Shown here: positions 42,001-51,000 of the stretch, piece after piece
Numbering within the stretch: the stretch's first letter is position 1
How the letters are laid out: each line of letters starts with the position of its first letter
Source: an uncultured Spirochaetota bacterium
Lineage (GTDB): Bacteria; Spirochaetota; UBA4802; UBA5550
Length of the DNA: 64,000 bases
Reading direction: 5' to 3'
NCBI GenBank assembly: GCA_963827275.1
Contig: CAWHAA010000008.1
Span: 416,001 to 480,000, forward strand
Program-made: the position numbers

Positions 42001-45000
42001 TAATACGAATAGGCCAGGGTTGTTTTCAGGGCCCTGAGAAGCGGTTTTCTGAATGGTATCATCCTGTGGCCCCCTCTGTAATTTTAAACATCAGGGTGAT
42101 TGTAACAATATCATTTGTCAATGCTAATATTCAGGGCAAGGCGTTCCGCGCCAGAGTGTATTTTTTTGGATAAAATTAATCTTTTTTTTATTGACAATAA
42201 CAAATGAAATGAGTAGGTTTAATTGAGATTTGGTTGGTCGTCCAATTTAAATATTGGACTCAAAATTAAATAATAATTATCATCAATTTATTCGCCTTTT
42301 GTGTGGAGTATCGAGGGAACTGCCCATGAGCCGGTTTTTGCAAACTATTATATTGGTTGGCCGTCCAATCAACACTCTGACCGGCGTTGTGGCATGCTAT
42401 GCATTGACGGCGTTCTTTTAAATCCCTGGCCGGCTGGTACCTATGCTTCTCAAAGGCTGTCTTCATGTCCACACCACCTGTTCCGACGGGAAACTGTCGC
42501 CGCAGGAGATGGCTGACGCGTACGAGTCACGGGGGTATGATTTCCTGGCGTTCACGGACCATGACTACCTTTTGAAGCCGAACTACCGTGAGATGTACGA
42601 CCGGGTTAAAACCGGCATGATCATTTTTCACGGCATGGAGATTACGGTGTATGTCAGGGGCTACCTTCACGTGGGGCAAATCGAGGGCGACGGCGAAACG
42701 CTGCGCATCTTCAACCATATAGGCGAATATAACATGTCGCCGGAGCAGGTGCTTGAGCGGCTGGCGGTGCTGGAAACCATGTATCCCCTCGATGCCGTTG
42801 AGATAACGACAAAGGGATTCCGCGATGCCGCGTTCGAGTCGCTGGACCTGCGGTACCCGAAAATCGCGTCCGATGATTCGCATACGCTGGTGGGCGTCGG
42901 GCGGGCATGGGTGGAATTGGACGCCGCGCGCGAGAAAGATTCAATACTGAGGGCGATAAAAGAAGGGAAAATTCTGGAACTGCTATGTTTGATCATACAC
43001 GGCAGCGCAATACTACAAGATATCATGAAGGAGGTTCAGCGTGATCCTTTATTTTTTCAGCACCAACAGGAGGATTGGCAATGGGTAAGAGAATAGCGGT
43101 CTGCGCCGTCGCGCAGATCAAAAACGAACCGGCATACAACCATATGCGCTTCCAGAACATGCTGCTCGAGTGCTTCGAGCCGATCATGGAAGAGACCAAG
43201 GTCACCTTTGACATGGAGAAGGGGATCAGGAACATCATCACCTGCTCGGATGACGTGTTTGACGCGCGGACCATATCCAACAACGGCATCACCGACGTGG
43301 TGGGCGCCCACTTCCGCGGGGAAGAGAAGATGGCCCAGGAGAGCATCAACGGCCTCGGCTACGCCATGGCCTGCATCCTGAGCGGCCATGACGACGTGAT
43401 CCTGTTCATGGGCCACTGCAAGGAATCGCAGGGAGAGAGCAGGAGAATGGCCACCAACCTCGCGTACGACCCGTTCTACTGCAGGCCCCTCGGCATGGAT
43501 TTCCAGAACGCGGACGCGCTGCAGGCCAGGGCATACATGGAAAAATCAGGCGTCACCGACAGTCACCTTGCGAAGATAGTGGCGCGTTCAAGGAAAAACG
43601 CGAAGAAGAACCCCTACGCGCGGGAAAACAAGCTTGTCGATGAAAAAGAAGTCATGAATTCGCCGATGTACCTTGATCCGCTCCGGGAACTCCACGTGTA
43701 CCCGGTCACCGACTGGGCGTACGGGATGCTGCTCTGCTGCGAGGAGCGCGCCAGGGAGTTCACGAAAAACCCGGTCTGGATCACCGGGTACGGGAGCTGC
43801 ATGGACCGGTATTTCCTCGGCGACCGGGACCTTTCGTCGAACTTCTCCCTCAGGAACGCGGCCGAGCGCGCGTATGCAAAGGCGGGGATCAAGGACCCGA
43901 GAAAAGAGGTGCAGCTGTTTGAATTAAGCGACCACGCAGCGCACCAGCTCCCGATGTGGGCCGAAGGCGTCGGCATAGCGGAGGAAGGCAGGGGCGGCAC
44001 ATGGATCGATGACGGCGGCATGGACACGTTCAACGTGAACCTGTCGGGCGGCCAGCTCAATGGCAACCCGCTCCTCCTCGGGGGCGCGGCCAGGGCCATT
44101 GAATGCTACTACCAGCTCTCCGGCCAGGCGGGCGAGCGCCAGGTCAAGGGCGTCAGGAAAGCTGTCGCCCAGGCGGCAACCGGCGGGGCAGGCCAGCACC
44201 AGGCCGTCATAGTTATGGAAGCGTAGGGAGGTTTGACAATGGCACACAGGAAGAAAAACAGGAATGTCGGCATAATAGGCATCGGGCAGACGAAGCACTC
44301 CAGCCACCGCGAGGACGTGAACCAGCCTGAAATGATACACGAGGCGGTCAGCCTGGCGTTGAAAGACGCGAACCTGACCATGAAGGACATCGACTGCATC
44401 GTCCATGGCAACATGGAGCTGTTTGAAATGATCCATCAGCCGGACATGTGGCACGTGCTGGGGACCGGCGGGTACGGCAGGGAGTGCATCCGGATCACCA
44501 CCGGCGGCACGGTCGGGGCGACCATCTCCTGCGCGTCGGACAACCTGGTGGCGTCGGGCATGTACGATATCGTCATGGCCATCGGCTTCGAGAAGCAGCA
44601 GGAGGGGCACACCACCGGCGGCATCACCAACATGGCGGACCCGCTCTGGTTCCGGAAAATCCAGGCGGGGGCGCTCACCGGCTCCGCGGCGTACGACGTC
44701 GAGCGTGAATTCGGGCTCGAGCGGGCCAACAAGGCGTCGCTGACCTACCGCATCATCATGGACAAGCACGCCGGGCTCAATCCCAACGCGCACCGCTCCT
44801 TCGGCCTGGACTTCAGCCAGATCGACGACCTCATCAAGAGCTCTCCGAAGCTCGTCGGCGACCTGAAGCTCATCGAGATGTGCTCCCAGTCGGACGGCGC
44901 CTGCTGCGTCATCTACGCCTGCGAGAAAAAGGCGAAGCAGCTTTCAAAGAACCCGGTCTGGATACGGGACCATATCACCAAGCACAAGGAAGAGACCTTC

Positions 45001-48000: not shown

Positions 48001-51000
48001 AGGGTGGCCGATTGCCTCGGCAGGCCGGTTGCGACGCCGGCGGAAGCGCGCGCGATCATGGGACTGAAGAAGAAGTAATTAATGTTGCCTGCCCGCATGG
48101 AGGCGGGGTCACGTGACCCCGCCTCCATGCGGGCAGGCCGGGCATCATCACGTGCAATACCGAGGGAGAGCTCAATGGCCGACAAATGCTATTATGAAGT
48201 GAACGAGCGGGGCATCGCCCTTCTGAAGATCAGCAACCCGCCGATGAACGCGCTGGACGAGGAGACCATGCGCCAGCTGGAGAGCTCAATGAAAAAGATC
48301 GCGGCGGACGAGGCGGTCAAGGTCGTCGTCGTGACCGGCGAGGGCGCCACGTTCGTTGTCGGCGCGGATGTCAGCAAGGTGAAGGAGGTCGACACGAGGG
48401 AGAAGGGGGAGGCGCTGACATCGGAAGCGCAGGGCATCATAAACCTGATCGAAAATTTACGGAAGCCGGTGATCGCGGCGATCAACGGCCTGTGCCTCGG
48501 CGGCGGGACCGAGCTTGCCATGGCGTGCCATATCCGCTTCATCGGAGACCAGGCCCAGATGGGCCTCCCGGAAATACTGCTGGGCATCATGCCCGCCTTC
48601 GGCGGGACGCAGCGGGCCGCGCGGCTGCTCGGCACGGCGCGCGCCATGGAGATCATGCTGACCGGCAGGTTCCTGCCGGCGGCGGAATGCGACAGGATCG
48701 GCCTGGTGAACAGGGTCGTCCCCCACGCGACGCTGCTTGAAGAAGCGATGAAGTTCGCGAAGGAGCTCTCGTACAAGGGGAGCGTGGCAATGGGCGCGAT
48801 AATCGAGGCGGTGACCAGGGGCGCGGACATGCCGCTTGCCGAGGGGCTGAAGCTTGAGAGCAGGCTGTTCGGCAGGCTGGCAGAGACGGAGGACAAGAAA
48901 GAGGGCATAGCGGCGTTTCTGGAGAAGCGGCGGCCGAGTTTTAAAGGCAGATGAGACAGATGCAGGCAATCACTCTATTCCGGAGCACGCGTTCCATGAG
49001 ATGTGCCGGGCATCTGAATGATGATGAGGACCTGGGGCTCAACGTCTGAAATTACAACAGGGGGAGTTCGATGGATCTATCAGAAAAGACAATAAATGAT
49101 GTGTTCCGCAATCGTGTCACAAAGTACGGGGACCGGCTGGCGATCGAGAAAAAACTCCACGGCGTATGGGAAAGCGCGACATGGAACCAGTACTACGAGC
49201 GGGCCCGCGCGACGGGACTCGGACTGTATTCCCTTGGCATCAGGAAAGGGGAGATGGTCGCGATCCTGTCGGAAAACCGGCTCGAGTGGCTCTACACCGA
49301 TATGGGGAGCCTGGGGATCGGCGCTGTCGTGATACCGGTCTACCCGACCCTTGTTTCAGAGGAAGTCGAGTACCTCATCAACAACTCCGGATCGAAAATC
49401 ATCGTGGTGGAAAATAAGGCGCAGCTCAAGAAAGTGCTCGAGGTAGAGAGGAAGTGCCACTCCCTCGAGAAGATCGTCGTCATGGAAGAGAAGGACGCCG
49501 AAGGCCACGAGAAAGTCATGAGCTTCGGGGCCCTGATGGAATTGGGGCGCACAAAGCACGCTGAAGACCCGGCGCTCTTTGAAAAGCTGTCGAAAGAAGT
49601 GACGGTGGACGATCTTGCCACCCTCGTGTACACCTCGGGGACCACCGGGCTCCCCAAAGGGGCCATGATATCGCACGGCAATATATTCTGGGTCGTGCAA
49701 TCGCTCGACGCAATCACGCCGCATTTTGCATCCGACAGCGACTGCACGGTGCCGTTCCTCCCCCTCTCCCATGTCTTCGAACGGATCGCCGGGCATTTCT
49801 ACGGCATGTATTGCGGCATCACCTCTTCCTACGCGGAGAGCATCGATTCACTGCTGGCTGACTTCGAGGAGAAGCGGCCCACCATGATCCTGGCGGTCCC
49901 CCGCGTGTGCGAGAAGGTCTACCAGAAGATCATGGCGCAGGTGCGCGAGCAGTCCCCCTTTAAACAGAAGGTGTTTTTCTGGGGACAGAAGGTCGGCAAC
50001 CGGATCAGCCGCCGCCGCGAAAATCACAAGCGTATTCCCTTCCGGCTCAGGCTGGAATATAAAATAGCCTTCGCCATCATATTCAAAAAGCTCCAGGAAA
50101 AGCTGGGAGGGCGCGTCACCTGGATGACCGCGTCGGGGGCGCCCACCGCCGAGGAGATCATACGGTTTTTCAACGCCGCAGGCATTACCGTCATCTCGGG
50201 CTACGGCATGACCGAGACCACCGCGCCCGTCACCATGCAGTCTCTGGGCGACTACCGGATCGGGACCACGGGGAAGCCGATACCGGGGCAGGATATCAGG
50301 ATCGCCGACGACGGGGAAATCTTGATAAAAGGCGGCAATGTCATCAAGGGCTACTGGAAGCTTCCGGAGGAGACCGCAGACGCGTTCACGCCGGACGGCT
50401 ATTTCATGTCGGGCGATATCGGCATATTCGACGATGAGGGGAACCTCCTGATCACGGACCGCAAGAAGGACCTCATCATAACGTCGGGAGGCAAGAATGT
50501 CGCCCCGCAGAAGATCGAGGGCCTGTTCAAGTCTGACCCGCTCTTCACCCAGTTCATAGTCATCGGTGAAAGGAAAAAATACCTGACTGCGCTGTGCAAT
50601 ATCAACCTTGAGGAGGCGGTGAGGCTCGCCGGCATTGAGGGCGTCCCGTACAAGGAACCGGTTGATCTGCTGGAGAGCGACCGCTTCCTCGAAATCGTGA
50701 AGAAGCACGTCGCGGAGCGCAACACGCATCTGGCCAAGTATGAAACCATAAAGGACTATCGGATCGTCAAGAATGAATTTTCCCAGGAGGGGGGCGAGCT
50801 GACGCCGTCGCTGAAAGTGAAGCGCAAGGTCATCTTGCAGAAATACAAGGACCTTATCGATGAAATGTATGAACGGGAAGATATAGATGATCTGCACATG
50901 ATCAAATAGTCATGGCGCATGAGTTATCTGTACCGGCGCACAATGATATCCGTAGTGAGAAAGGAGACAGGTCATGAACAATGCGGTTGAGCTGAAACAG

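Follow-up and report, generated by a model that had tools for sequence, protein, structure and literature searches.

The question raised by this locus is why BKACE, an enzyme that cleaves beta-keto acids, should be joined to a DUF35 domain in an operon of thiolase-fold genes. The fused gene is real and conserved in anaerobic bacteria, and its docking domain probably holds BKACE on a thiolase-shaped C-C lyase pair degrading a branched fatty-acid-like compound. The window (the whole stretch of DNA analysed, 64,000 nt) contains the following features:

42443..43096, +, PHP-domain metallohydrolase, operon head (Pfam)
43081..44226, +, TH1, Cys-less thiolase fold, Ltp4-like subunit (SDHA, without the aldolase Tyr)
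44239..45438, +, TH2, Cys-less thiolase fold, Ltp3-like subunit (profile and alignment)
45449..46639, +, SCP2-SCP2-DUF35 protein, lipid-binding modules on a second DUF35
46651..48078, +, gene fusing DUF35 to BKACE (475 aa, ATG start at 46651)
46768..47064, +, DUF35 part of the fusion, zinc ribbon and OB fold (Pfam)
47200..47220, +, internal Shine-Dalgarno-like purine run (GGGGG, 47203-47207) and in-frame ATG (47218-47220)
47227..48066, +, BKACE (DUF849) TIM barrel (Pfam, residue alignment)
48175..48954, +, crotonase-family enoyl-CoA hydratase (Pfam/profile), lacking in many relatives
49071..50909, +, long-chain acyl-CoA ligase family protein (Pfam/profile)
50974..52751, +, CoA-transferase of two subunits, most like glutaconate CoA-transferase
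52766..56141, +, second module: free DUF35, TH3 (Ltp4-like, YDAF), TH4 (Ltp3-like, YQPY), free DUF35
56138..57738, +, 300-aa conserved protein (no Pfam match) and TetR regulator (Pfam, locus comparison)
57906..60282, +, tandem acyl-CoA dehydrogenases, Gly as in isovaleryl-CoA dehydrogenase (IGGGT, IGEGT)
60343..60777, +, MaoC hydratase, whose orthologue (60-72% identical) is fused to the same DUF35 in Desulfobacterales
60869..62907, +, TH5 (Cys-less, HDAF) and divergent DUF35-like gene
62959..64000, +, third acyl-CoA dehydrogenase (IGEGT), continuing past the window end

The open frame of the fusion (46636/46651-48078, +) places DUF35, linker and BKACE in one protein, the sole BKACE of the genome. 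Pfam locates zf-ChsH2 at 40-65, OB_ChsH2_C at 74-138 and BKACE at 193-472 (E 1.7e-93; coordinates renumbered from a 480-aa to the 475-aa frame), bearing out the first-pass annotation of a single 475-aa protein with one DUF35 and a complete BKACE within these limits. The DUF35 part lies above the cut-offs of PF12172 and PF01796 and matches by fold the DUF35 of ChsH2 (6ok1_B, TM 0.72), as well as 6esq_F and 3irb. Its zinc ligands are C49, C52 and C63, followed by D66 in the place of the fourth Cys; the protein thus lacks the four-cysteine site of ChsH2-type scaffolds, and among 50 aligned rows the fourth position is Asp in 35 and Cys in the other 15. The zinc site of Shy likewise departs from four Cys, being described as Cys3His in passages of PMC12329534.

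The BKACE part covers the entire PF05853 profile (313 bits, cut-off 24.8) and matches Kce by fold (2y7f, TM 0.91 by target). Its metal and catalytic residues (H236, H238, E428, E343, R424, D429) align to those of Kce and are invariant in 81/81 rows, so that the metal motif is kept as had been claimed; the identity to Kce, previously given as 43.8%, came out at 34% over 287 columns against PDB 2y7f. The residue roles follow in part PMC11961710 and in part general background on the family. The TIM barrel, zinc ligands and catalytic Glu/Arg/Asp are shared with the BKACE family (PF05853; PDB 2y7f; triacetate acetoacetate-lyase, in portions of PMC10470551), but unlike Kce this protein has an N-terminal DUF35, SSAVG instead of STGGA, and Ala (A204) at the position of Glu14 (A in 62, G in 18, T in 1 of 81 rows), the residue that holds the lysine intermediate by its amino group according to sections of PMC10470551. 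The lysine-fermentation model NF052387 gives 277 bits, under its equivalog cut-off of 382, and with Glu14 absent too the protein agrees with lysine-fermentation Kce in neither respect. Four NCBIfam function models matched the BKACE part, each with a score under its cut-off.

The fusion is no assembly artefact, since contigs from 3/4 public DNA runs (three studies) span the DUF35-BKACE junction gap-free and 86 of the best 120 protein clusters have both Pfam domains. DUF35 and BKACE are fused in 54 of 80 related loci and split into two adjacent genes in 15, while 9 have close BKACE relatives without an adjacent DUF35. A search of class genomes found the near-whole fusion, patchily distributed, in 48/122 (69-91% identity), with TH2 orthologues in 47 of these 48. 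The fused frame is open across two phyla, its carriers being Spirochaetota and Smithella relatives. As reported before, a literature search found no paper on a DUF35-BKACE fusion, and a repeated search found none either.

The closest non-BKACE relatives of the fusion's DUF35 are DUF35-MaoC fusions (49-64% identity), with 29 of them among the 120 matches listed, plus one larger ligase-SCP2-DUF35-MaoC protein. Across 53 further loci, mostly from Desulfobacterales, 39 carry a MaoC hydratase on this DUF35 in the same operon slot, and TH1-TH2 stand directly upstream in all 29 of these loci showing both genes. The same DUF35 C-terminus has independently acquired a second pathway enzyme, and in Shy-Sal, too, an aldolase of thiolase fold is bound by a DUF35-MaoC (parts of PMC12329534). 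BKACE is not an obligatory partner of TH1-TH2: a genome search found a close orthologue in only 7/39 genomes with the DUF35-MaoC form, so the pair works without it; none was found in two complete Desulfosarcina genomes, and 5 of the 12 DUF35-MaoC genomes whose TH1 is closest to that of the window have one. The neighbouring SCP2-SCP2-DUF35 architecture was recovered as annotated (45449-46639, two SCP2 domains and zf-ChsH2 at 266-299, Pfam), its OB half lying under the Pfam threshold yet aligning with other DUF35s; this slot holds an acyl-CoA ligase and SCP2 in most Desulfobacterales loci.

The five thiolase-fold genes of the first-pass annotation (starting at 43081, 44239, 53247, 54404 and 60869) were recovered by Pfam and profile matches, as were its four DUF35 genes by Pfam; hhalign adds a divergent fifth at 62317-62907 with a probability of 80%. 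The tandem upstream pair had been said to lack the usual Cys, and alignment extends this loss to all five: RITTGGTVG of TH2 stands opposite VNNNCSTGS and VEAACASGS of solved thiolases, and with the other four placed by multiple alignment the nucleophile site is Gly, Ser or Asp-Gly. Lacking the nucleophile, TH1-TH5 were discarded as thiolases, TH1-TH2 resembling actinobacterial Ltp4/Ltp3. PRK08313 is the best profile for TH2 and TH4 (258 and 365 bits, cut-off 514) and TH1 scores high on PRK07937 (TH1 155, TH3 185, cut-off 419), all four under the NCBIfam cut-offs of Ltp3- and Ltp4-type families; TH5 reaches that of PRK06365. Both profiles are passed by the pair of a sterol cluster from Tsukamurella, which comprises echA19, a tandem DUF35, the two thiolase-fold genes and a steroid thiolase; TH4 is 40% identical to the Ltp3-type protein of that pair.

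In TH2 the nucleophile site reads TTGG and the HDCF/YDHF site YDP, with SNP replacing GHP. Its Tyr295 takes the position of the His in thiolase HDCF, which is the catalytic-Tyr place in YDHF/YDCY, and Y295-D296 are invariant in 35/35 rows. This Tyr of the YDxx motif of Ltp2/Sal aldolases is present in TH2, TH3 and TH4, and absent from TH1 and TH5. No general acid was identified in TH2, because the invariant P297 occupies the place of Ltp2's His or Sal's catalytic Cys; the Ltp2/Sal comparison gave neither a second Tyr nor a His/Cys two residues past the Tyr. Judged by their motifs, TH1-TH2 are Ltp4/Ltp3-like and probably retro-aldolases.

Known systems resemble this one in different respects. 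Ltp3-Ltp4 with an adjacent tandem-DUF35 protein form the actinobacterial C24-branched sterol side-chain aldol-lyase (PRK08313, PRK07937; portions of PMC6678751), sharing with our locus the adjacent unlike Cys-less pair (Ltp4-like first, Ltp3-like second), the presence of two DUF35 units, a TxG in the place of the nucleophile and the YxP and NPIG motifs. The cluster proteins are, however, only 31-40% identical to them, the DUF35s are separate, each with a further domain, two such modules stand in one cluster, BKACE is present, no sterol genes were found among the neighbours scanned, and no fitting carboxylase was found. Shy (DUF35-MaoC)/Sal and ChsH2 (MaoC-DUF35)/Ltp2 are steroid side-chain hydratase-aldolase complexes (PDB 9myr, 6ok1; parts of PMC12329534), which likewise combine a DUF35-fused pathway enzyme with a Cys-less thiolase fold whose HDCF site carries a Tyr; the likeness to ChsH2 includes the fold match and the MaoC of the Desulfobacterales version. 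They differ in that BKACE is the fused enzyme here and in the proposed route follows the cut instead of preceding it, that the proposed lyase consists of two unlike subunits and has two DUF35s that are also unlike, and that TH2 has YDP instead of YDHF/YDCY and lacks the second Tyr or Cys acid. A DUF35 staple on an SCP2-type thiolase fold is also seen in the archaeal thiolase/HMG-CoA synthase/DUF35 complex, PhlABC and BbsAB (6esq, 5m3k, 7pxp; passages of PMC12960953), although the thiolase of 6esq retains the nucleophile Cys and channels by way of a fused CoA site, whereas here Cys is absent and the partner enzyme sits on a flexible linker.

Three dehydrogenases and two hydratases (Pfam) complete the cluster; neither a 3-hydroxyacyl-CoA dehydrogenase nor a Cys thiolase was found in it or among the recurring neighbour families scanned, which speaks for the retro-aldolase reading below. 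ACAD1 has isovaleryl-CoA dehydrogenase as its best solved relative, and IGGGT is kept in 56/57 and IGEGT in 36/46 orthologues, giving the cluster's dehydrogenases an isovaleryl-CoA-dehydrogenase-type pocket, in which the Gly makes room for a 3-branch. The CoA-transferase B subunit keeps a Glu at the Glu position of GctB (FEAG versus VESG); its family includes the solved relatives 5n00-5n03, a decarboxylase of branched-acid synthesis.

Given the observed fusion, residues, gene order and partner swap, we put at roughly 0.45 the probability that DUF35 tethers BKACE to a retro-aldolase whose cut of a beta-branched 3-hydroxyacyl-CoA yields acetyl-CoA together with a beta-keto acid. A hydrophobic, beta-branched acid would be made a CoA ester by the ligase or the CoA-transferase and held by the SCP2 modules; the isovaleryl-type dehydrogenases would desaturate it and MaoC or crotonase hydrate it to a tertiary 3-hydroxyacyl-CoA, for which no further oxidation would be possible. 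The Tyr of TH2 would then start the retro-aldol cut, releasing acetyl-CoA, and if a carboxylate stood at the end of the branch, making the compound a 3-substituted glutaryl-type ester, a free beta-keto acid would be the second product. These are the two substrates of BKACE, which would convert them, without ATP, into a shorter acyl-CoA and acetoacetate; the CoA-transferase, along with ordinary thiolases encoded elsewhere in the genome, would dispose of the latter. By comparison, Ltp3-Ltp4 is described as a heteromeric aldol-lyase whose products are acetyl- or propionyl-CoA and a carboxylate that has to be re-activated (from part of the review PMC6678751). Docking of the fusion's DUF35 on a TH1-TH2 heteromer seems quite likely and the aldolase chemistry reasonably so, while the passing of the product to BKACE and the kind of substrate are more tentative. 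A canonical acyl-CoA carboxyltransferase (E limit 1e-60) and a hydantoinase-type ketone carboxylase were each found in only 3/48 fusion genomes, and the one large, divergent carboxylase of this genome tracks taxonomy, not the fusion; no source of the carboxylate arm was found, and therefore the substrate would need to arrive as a dicarboxylate. This lack counts against the reading, as do the scarcity of BKACE in the DUF35-MaoC genomes, the missing general acid in TH2, the sub-cut-off profile scores of TH1-TH4, the 9 loci whose BKACE has no DUF35 beside it, and the many loci lacking the CoA-transferase and crotonase.

BKACE had been proposed as a new partner of a DUF35-thiolase channelling module. 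The tethered partner is supported, given the same DUF35, slot and Cys-less pair with either BKACE or MaoC, as in Shy-Sal and ChsH2-Ltp2 (sections of PMC12329534); the words "thiolase" and "channelling" are better replaced. The linker (34-42 residues, 37 in most) is variable in sequence and has low model confidence, and flexible linkers in Shy-Sal are argued, in parts of PMC12329534, not to fit direct channelling, so co-localisation is the safer claim. A wider scheme, possible but doubtful, would have syntrophic and sulfate-reducing anaerobes share an undescribed route for beta-branched (di)carboxylic lipids that uses neither thiolase nor carboxylase, with a heteromeric retro-aldolase and two interchangeable DUF35 sockets, one for entry enzymes (SCP2, acyl-CoA ligase) and the other for a pre-cut hydratase or post-cut BKACE; the BKACE form would shorten the chain ATP-free, and the kept internal start would give mixed tethered and free subunits.

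Alternatively, the cluster could bypass a thiolase: a CoA-transferase would free the 3-oxo acid from a bulky 3-oxoacyl-CoA, BKACE would cleave it and acetoacetate be recycled, DUF35 merely keeping BKACE near pathway enzymes with no aldolase product taken. Locus L062, where BKACE adjoins CoA-transferase genes without DUF35, and L071, where it adjoins a 3-hydroxyacyl-CoA dehydrogenase, point this way, BKACE with CoA-transferase being a known pattern in lysine and phloroglucinol fermentation (parts of a NetSyn preprint and of PMC10470551); no carboxylase is required, and TH1-TH2 frequently occur without BKACE. We nevertheless consider it unlikely, as no 3-hydroxyacyl-CoA dehydrogenase that could form the 3-oxoacyl-CoA was found in the cluster (Pfam), CoA-transferase genes are missing from many loci, including many fused loci of Smithella relatives, and the genome already has six ordinary thiolases above the TIGR01930 cut-off.

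Less probable still, two neighbouring genes may have lost the stop codon between them and the loss been tolerated, leaving BKACE mostly free from an old internal start and the tether of little function. Besides the split orthologous operons (15/80 loci, 26-187 nt between the genes), this would account for an internal ATG standing at the start of the BKACE part and retained in 53/55 fused genes, preceded by a 5-6 nt Shine-Dalgarno in 40/55 (31/1077 for other internal ATGs), for junction Gly codons that are GGA or GGG in 48/48 cases (42/195 elsewhere) and for a Shine-Dalgarno found in two reading frames. Against it, the frame is open over two phyla with linker length held, the same DUF35 C-terminus independently took another pathway enzyme, and two fused genes (L033, L040) have lost the ATG. 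With the tethered retro-aldolase partner as the preferred reading, the conserved start may additionally give free BKACE.

A synthetic direction, with BKACE making the beta-keto acid from acyl-CoA and acetoacetate, the pair joining acetyl-CoA on in an aldol addition, and the hydratase and dehydrogenases yielding a beta-branched acid, would suit the reversibility of BKACE reactions (portions of PMC10470551), synthetic DUF35 complexes such as HMGS/thiolase (PMC12960953, in part) and archaeal fatty acid synthase (passages of 10.1101/2024.07.05.601840), the solved CoA-transferase relatives and the needlessness of a carboxylase, but is very improbable given the catabolic look of the TetR regulator, long-chain ligase and three dehydrogenases, the retained Glu of the CoA-transferase and a patchy class distribution like that of a substrate-use cluster.

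BKACE thus joins the enzymes known on DUF35 scaffolds, and one orthologous operon illustrates a DUF35 socket carrying different enzymes. The cluster indicates a pathway that is widespread among bacteria of digesters and sediments, with a proposed ATP-saving way round the re-activation step after Ltp3/Ltp4-type cleavage. Cultured Desulfosarcina strains carry the sister operon, therefore induction and substrate are testable now, and the small enzyme set is open to in vitro assay. At the operon head, the last ~40 residues of the PHP gene (42443..43096) are out of frame relative to its relatives.

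The fusion gene lies in a closely spaced run of plus-strand genes that extends from 42443 to past 64000, whose members discussed here are:

42443–43096 (+), PHP gene
43081 (+), TH1, thiolase-fold gene, Ltp4-like
44239 (+), TH2, thiolase-fold gene, Ltp3-like
45449–46639 (+), SCP2-SCP2-DUF35 gene (SCP2 protein)
46651–48078 (+), DUF35-BKACE fusion
53247 (+), TH3, thiolase-fold gene, Ltp4-like
54404 (+), TH4, thiolase-fold gene, Ltp3-like
56138–57040 (+), 300-aa protein
57906–60282 (+), ACAD1 and ACAD2, tandem acyl-CoA dehydrogenases
60343 (+), free MaoC
60869 (+), TH5, thiolase-fold gene
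62959 (+), ACAD3, third acyl-CoA dehydrogenase

As the first-pass annotation had it, 46651–48078 is a single 475-aa frame with zf-ChsH2, OB_ChsH2_C and a complete BKACE (beta-keto acid cleavage enzyme) domain. It is the sole BKACE of this genome. From TH1 to TH2, from there to the SCP2 protein and on to the fusion the spacing is 12, 10 and 11 nt, and every gap holds a purine-rich ribosome site. The DUF35-BKACE junction is spanned gap-free by contigs from three of the four public DNA runs compared; an RNA run carrying the region was not among the public runs listed. The structure model of the fusion has two domains (mean pLDDT 78, low in the linker and residues 1–40), the BKACE domain matching the lysine-fermentation enzyme Kce (2y7f) with a TM of 0.91 by target at 34% identity and the DUF35 domain that of ChsH2 (6ok1_B) with a TM of 0.72. 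The Cys3Asp zinc site of the fused DUF35 (46651–47130) is found in 35 of 50 aligned rows.

Among the best 80 of 175 species-genome loci, which include a few near-copies, the fusion is present in 54, belonging by record titles to Spirochaetota, Smithella, Syntrophaceae and other deltaproteobacterial MAGs. DUF35 and BKACE are separate neighbouring genes of the same operon in 15, BKACE has no adjoining DUF35 in nine, and in two (Chloroflexota) it lies downstream of the other thiolase-fold pair plus its DUF35. Within the window's class, near-whole matches appear in 48 of 122 genomes at 69–91% identity (one of them, G066, with a stop within the matched stretch) and matches in pieces in two more (G034 and G101), while a TH2 orthologue is found in 51 of the 122, including 47 of the 48 fusion genomes. 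Both Pfam domains occur on 86 of the best 120 protein clusters. On a quick BKACE tree the fused state takes three changes, the starred branches requiring at least two, and neither a single nor a multiple origin of the fusion is shown. In the stretch 4210–14601 of L062 one free BKACE (73% identical) sits between CoA-transferase genes and a 1008-aa glycyl radical enzyme with its activase.

In literature searches on DUF35, BKACE/DUF849 and thiolase-linked keto acid cleavage we found no description of a DUF35-BKACE fusion; searches on host physiology or proteomics yielded nothing of use. The available text of the DUF35 structure paper (PMC2954200) lists thiolases, Rossmann domains, SCP2 and hot-dog dehydratases as DUF35 fusion partners, BKACE not among them, so that SCP2-DUF35 was already known; the passages of PMC12960953 mention, as reported earlier, HMGS-DUF35 as the sole fusion. 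The section on BKACE contexts of the NetSyn preprint names neither thiolase nor DUF35, the neighbourhoods themselves being in its supplements. The proposal that BKACE is a new partner for the known DUF35 scaffold has held, and the fusion is real and conserved; it is no new kind of system, and what gives it interest is the surrounding lyase pathway, which is uncharacterised, together with the exchange of partners on one DUF35 docking domain, or socket.

The best explanation of this arrangement is that DUF35 would tether BKACE to a retro-aldolase formed by TH1 and TH2. The nucleophile Cys, whose absence from TH1 and TH2 had been judged by eye, is missing from all five thiolase-fold genes, which rules out true thiolases. 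TH2 and TH4 score best with PRK08313, and TH1 and TH3 match PRK06066, PRK06065 and PRK07937, in all cases below cut-off. The best plasmid-collection match of TH4 lies in a cluster of Tsukamurella comprising EchA19, a tandem DUF35, a steroid thiolase and a pair of thiolase-fold genes above the cut-offs of PRK07937 and PRK08313, the arrangement of ltp4-ltp3; the window pairs share motifs with this pair at 31–40% identity. Ltp3-Ltp4 is described in a review as a heteromeric aldol-lyase that takes acetyl- or propionyl-CoA off carboxylated, hydrated C24-branched sterol chains, the carboxylate remaining (PMC6678751, excerpt). The Tyr that Ltp2 and Sal use belongs to a YDHF or YDCY motif at the thiolase HDCF site (PMC12329534, excerpt). 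The corresponding motif is YDPA in TH2, its Tyr, Asp and Pro being invariant (35/35), YDAF in TH3 and YQPY in TH4, the Tyr missing in TH1 and TH5. The acid residue of Ltp2 or Sal is lacking, and the aldolase reading is for this reason one of analogy rather than membership. The active-site loops of the TH2 structure model have a pLDDT below 50, and a predicted complex of TH1, TH2 and the fused DUF35 scored 0.90 and a control with an unrelated protein in place of TH2 0.86, so that the prediction counts neither for nor against the complex.

Both the tether and the aldolase reading draw their best support from a design shared with Shy-Sal, which came to light with the DUF35 part alone as query against longer proteins. 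Among the 120 matches listed, the BKACE fusions are followed by 29 DUF35-MaoC proteins (49–64% identity), whose MaoC is orthologous to the free MaoC at 60343, and one protein of 1128 aa (P0126) reads ligase-SCP2-DUF35-DUF35-MaoC with both DUF35 types, a layout which suggests both sockets in one complex. DUF35-MaoC is fused in 39 of the 53 loci annotated (the first 53 new ones of 77 returned), usually in the order ACAD1-ACAD2-TetR-PHP-TH1-TH2-[ligase-SCP2-DUF35]-[DUF35-MaoC]-ACAD; in 29 of them the upstream stretch shows TH1 as well as TH2. Their TH2 has TGGT in 44/44 and YDPS in 41/44, and DUF35-MaoC next to a thiolase-fold aldolase is the design these loci have in common with Shy-Sal. The complete genomes with this form include those of Desulfosarcina widdelii PP31 and D. 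alkanivorans PL12, and the partner exchange at a single socket makes the system testable in cultured strains. A strict link between TH1-TH2 and BKACE is weakened by the finding of a close BKACE orthologue in only 7 of the 39 DUF35-MaoC genomes (5 of the 12 with TH1 at 64–70%, 2 of the 27 others), many of which are incomplete. A profile search of 50%-clusters returned mostly proteins of free and tandem DUF35 length; row L174:8421–8939 of alignment A2, out of frame, was left out.

The BKACE metal motif is kept, as first noted, and H236, H238, E428, E343, R424 and D429 match Kce and are invariant in 81/81 rows. Where Kce has Glu14, the residue that holds its substrate by the amino group (PMC10470551, excerpt), the fusion has Ala204, and STGGA is SSAVG. 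Given these replacements and the intact metal and catalytic residues, the BKACE part is most likely an active enzyme whose keto acid substrate is neutral and probably hydrophobic; Kce itself is ruled out by the absent Glu14 and a score below cut-off. BKACE is a homotetramer with a single entry channel (PMC11961710, excerpt), and a fused tetramer would therefore display up to four DUF35 arms.

A free BKACE may also be produced alongside the fusion, judging from an in-frame ATG at 47218 that follows a G run and begins the BKACE part. This ATG is preserved in 53 of 55 fused genes, kin among which are not independent in any of these counts; a Shine-Dalgarno of 5–6 nt precedes it in 40/55, against 31/1077 other internal ATGs, and the remaining 13 with the ATG, the window's included, have GGGGG. 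Of the two Gly codons at the junction, the first is GGA or GGG in 48/48 versus 42/195 elsewhere, and seven genes have the Shine-Dalgarno site in a different frame.

Regarding the substrate, the cluster contains a long-chain ligase, SCP2 modules, three dehydrogenases and two hydratases; a 3-hydroxyacyl-CoA dehydrogenase and a Cys thiolase are absent from it, and neither turned up in a scan that covered 23 of the 45 unannotated clusters recurring most often among the neighbours. The nearest solved relative of ACAD1 is isovaleryl-CoA dehydrogenase (IVD), whose Gly gives space for a 3-branch, a role on which a literature search found no paper, and all three dehydrogenases have Gly at that position (IGGGT 56/57, IGEGT 36/46, and IGEGT in the single ACAD3 seen). 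Since ACAD1 has Asp for the catalytic Glu of IVD and the other site has no Glu either, ACAD1 and ACAD2 may form a heteromer. Hydration of a 3-branched enoyl-CoA would give a tertiary alcohol, which could be broken down further by an aldol cut alone, and a beta-keto acid product would demand a carboxylate at the end of the branch. A canonical acyl-CoA carboxyltransferase is found in 3 of the 48 fusion genomes (27/122 in the class overall), as is a hydantoinase-type carboxylase (3/48), and the genome's single large carboxylase follows two families and not the fusion. With no fitting carboxylase going with the fusion, the substrate would have to be, under the beta-keto acid reading, a ready-made branched dicarboxylate. 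A glutaconate-type CoA-transferase keeps its Glu and fits such a substrate, but is missing from many loci. For sitosterol-type and methyl-ketone carboxylation no matching carboxylase was found, and an IpdAB-type ring hydrolase is ruled out by the far better match of the CoA-transferase to glutaconate CoA-transferase (E 9e-47, versus 1e-11 for 6con and 5e-9 for 6co6). An aldehyde:ferredoxin oxidoreductase gene near the cluster in five loci (L009, L010, L036, L073, L079) would fit an aldehyde product of a Sal-type cut.

On contig C4 of the same genome (L180, 8424–14292) the ~1950-aa biotin carboxylase/carboxyltransferase of relatives is in two frames of 1187 and 788 aa. The PHP gene departs from its relatives' frame near residue 178 and runs 35 residues further, into TH1, where relatives terminate in GxFWNCY; its 3' end is a late frameshift or an assembly indel, and no solved relative was found by sequence. 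The 300-aa protein at 56138–57040, conserved in most fused loci and with no Pfam or NCBIfam match, resembles by eye a PPM-type phosphatase, giving with PHP two possible phosphoesterases within a lipid cluster. Divergent from the operon is an iron-containing alcohol dehydrogenase (40845–42062), a neighbourhood not kept in the fetched relatives. On the minus strand, 32822–38506 holds two ketoacyl-synthase III-like genes, an alpha/beta-hydrolase-ligase fusion and a 3-beta-HSD-family gene, the layout of oleABCD olefin synthesis. On either side of this cluster lies an AraC regulator whose sensor part is long (31056–32816 and 38788–40557).
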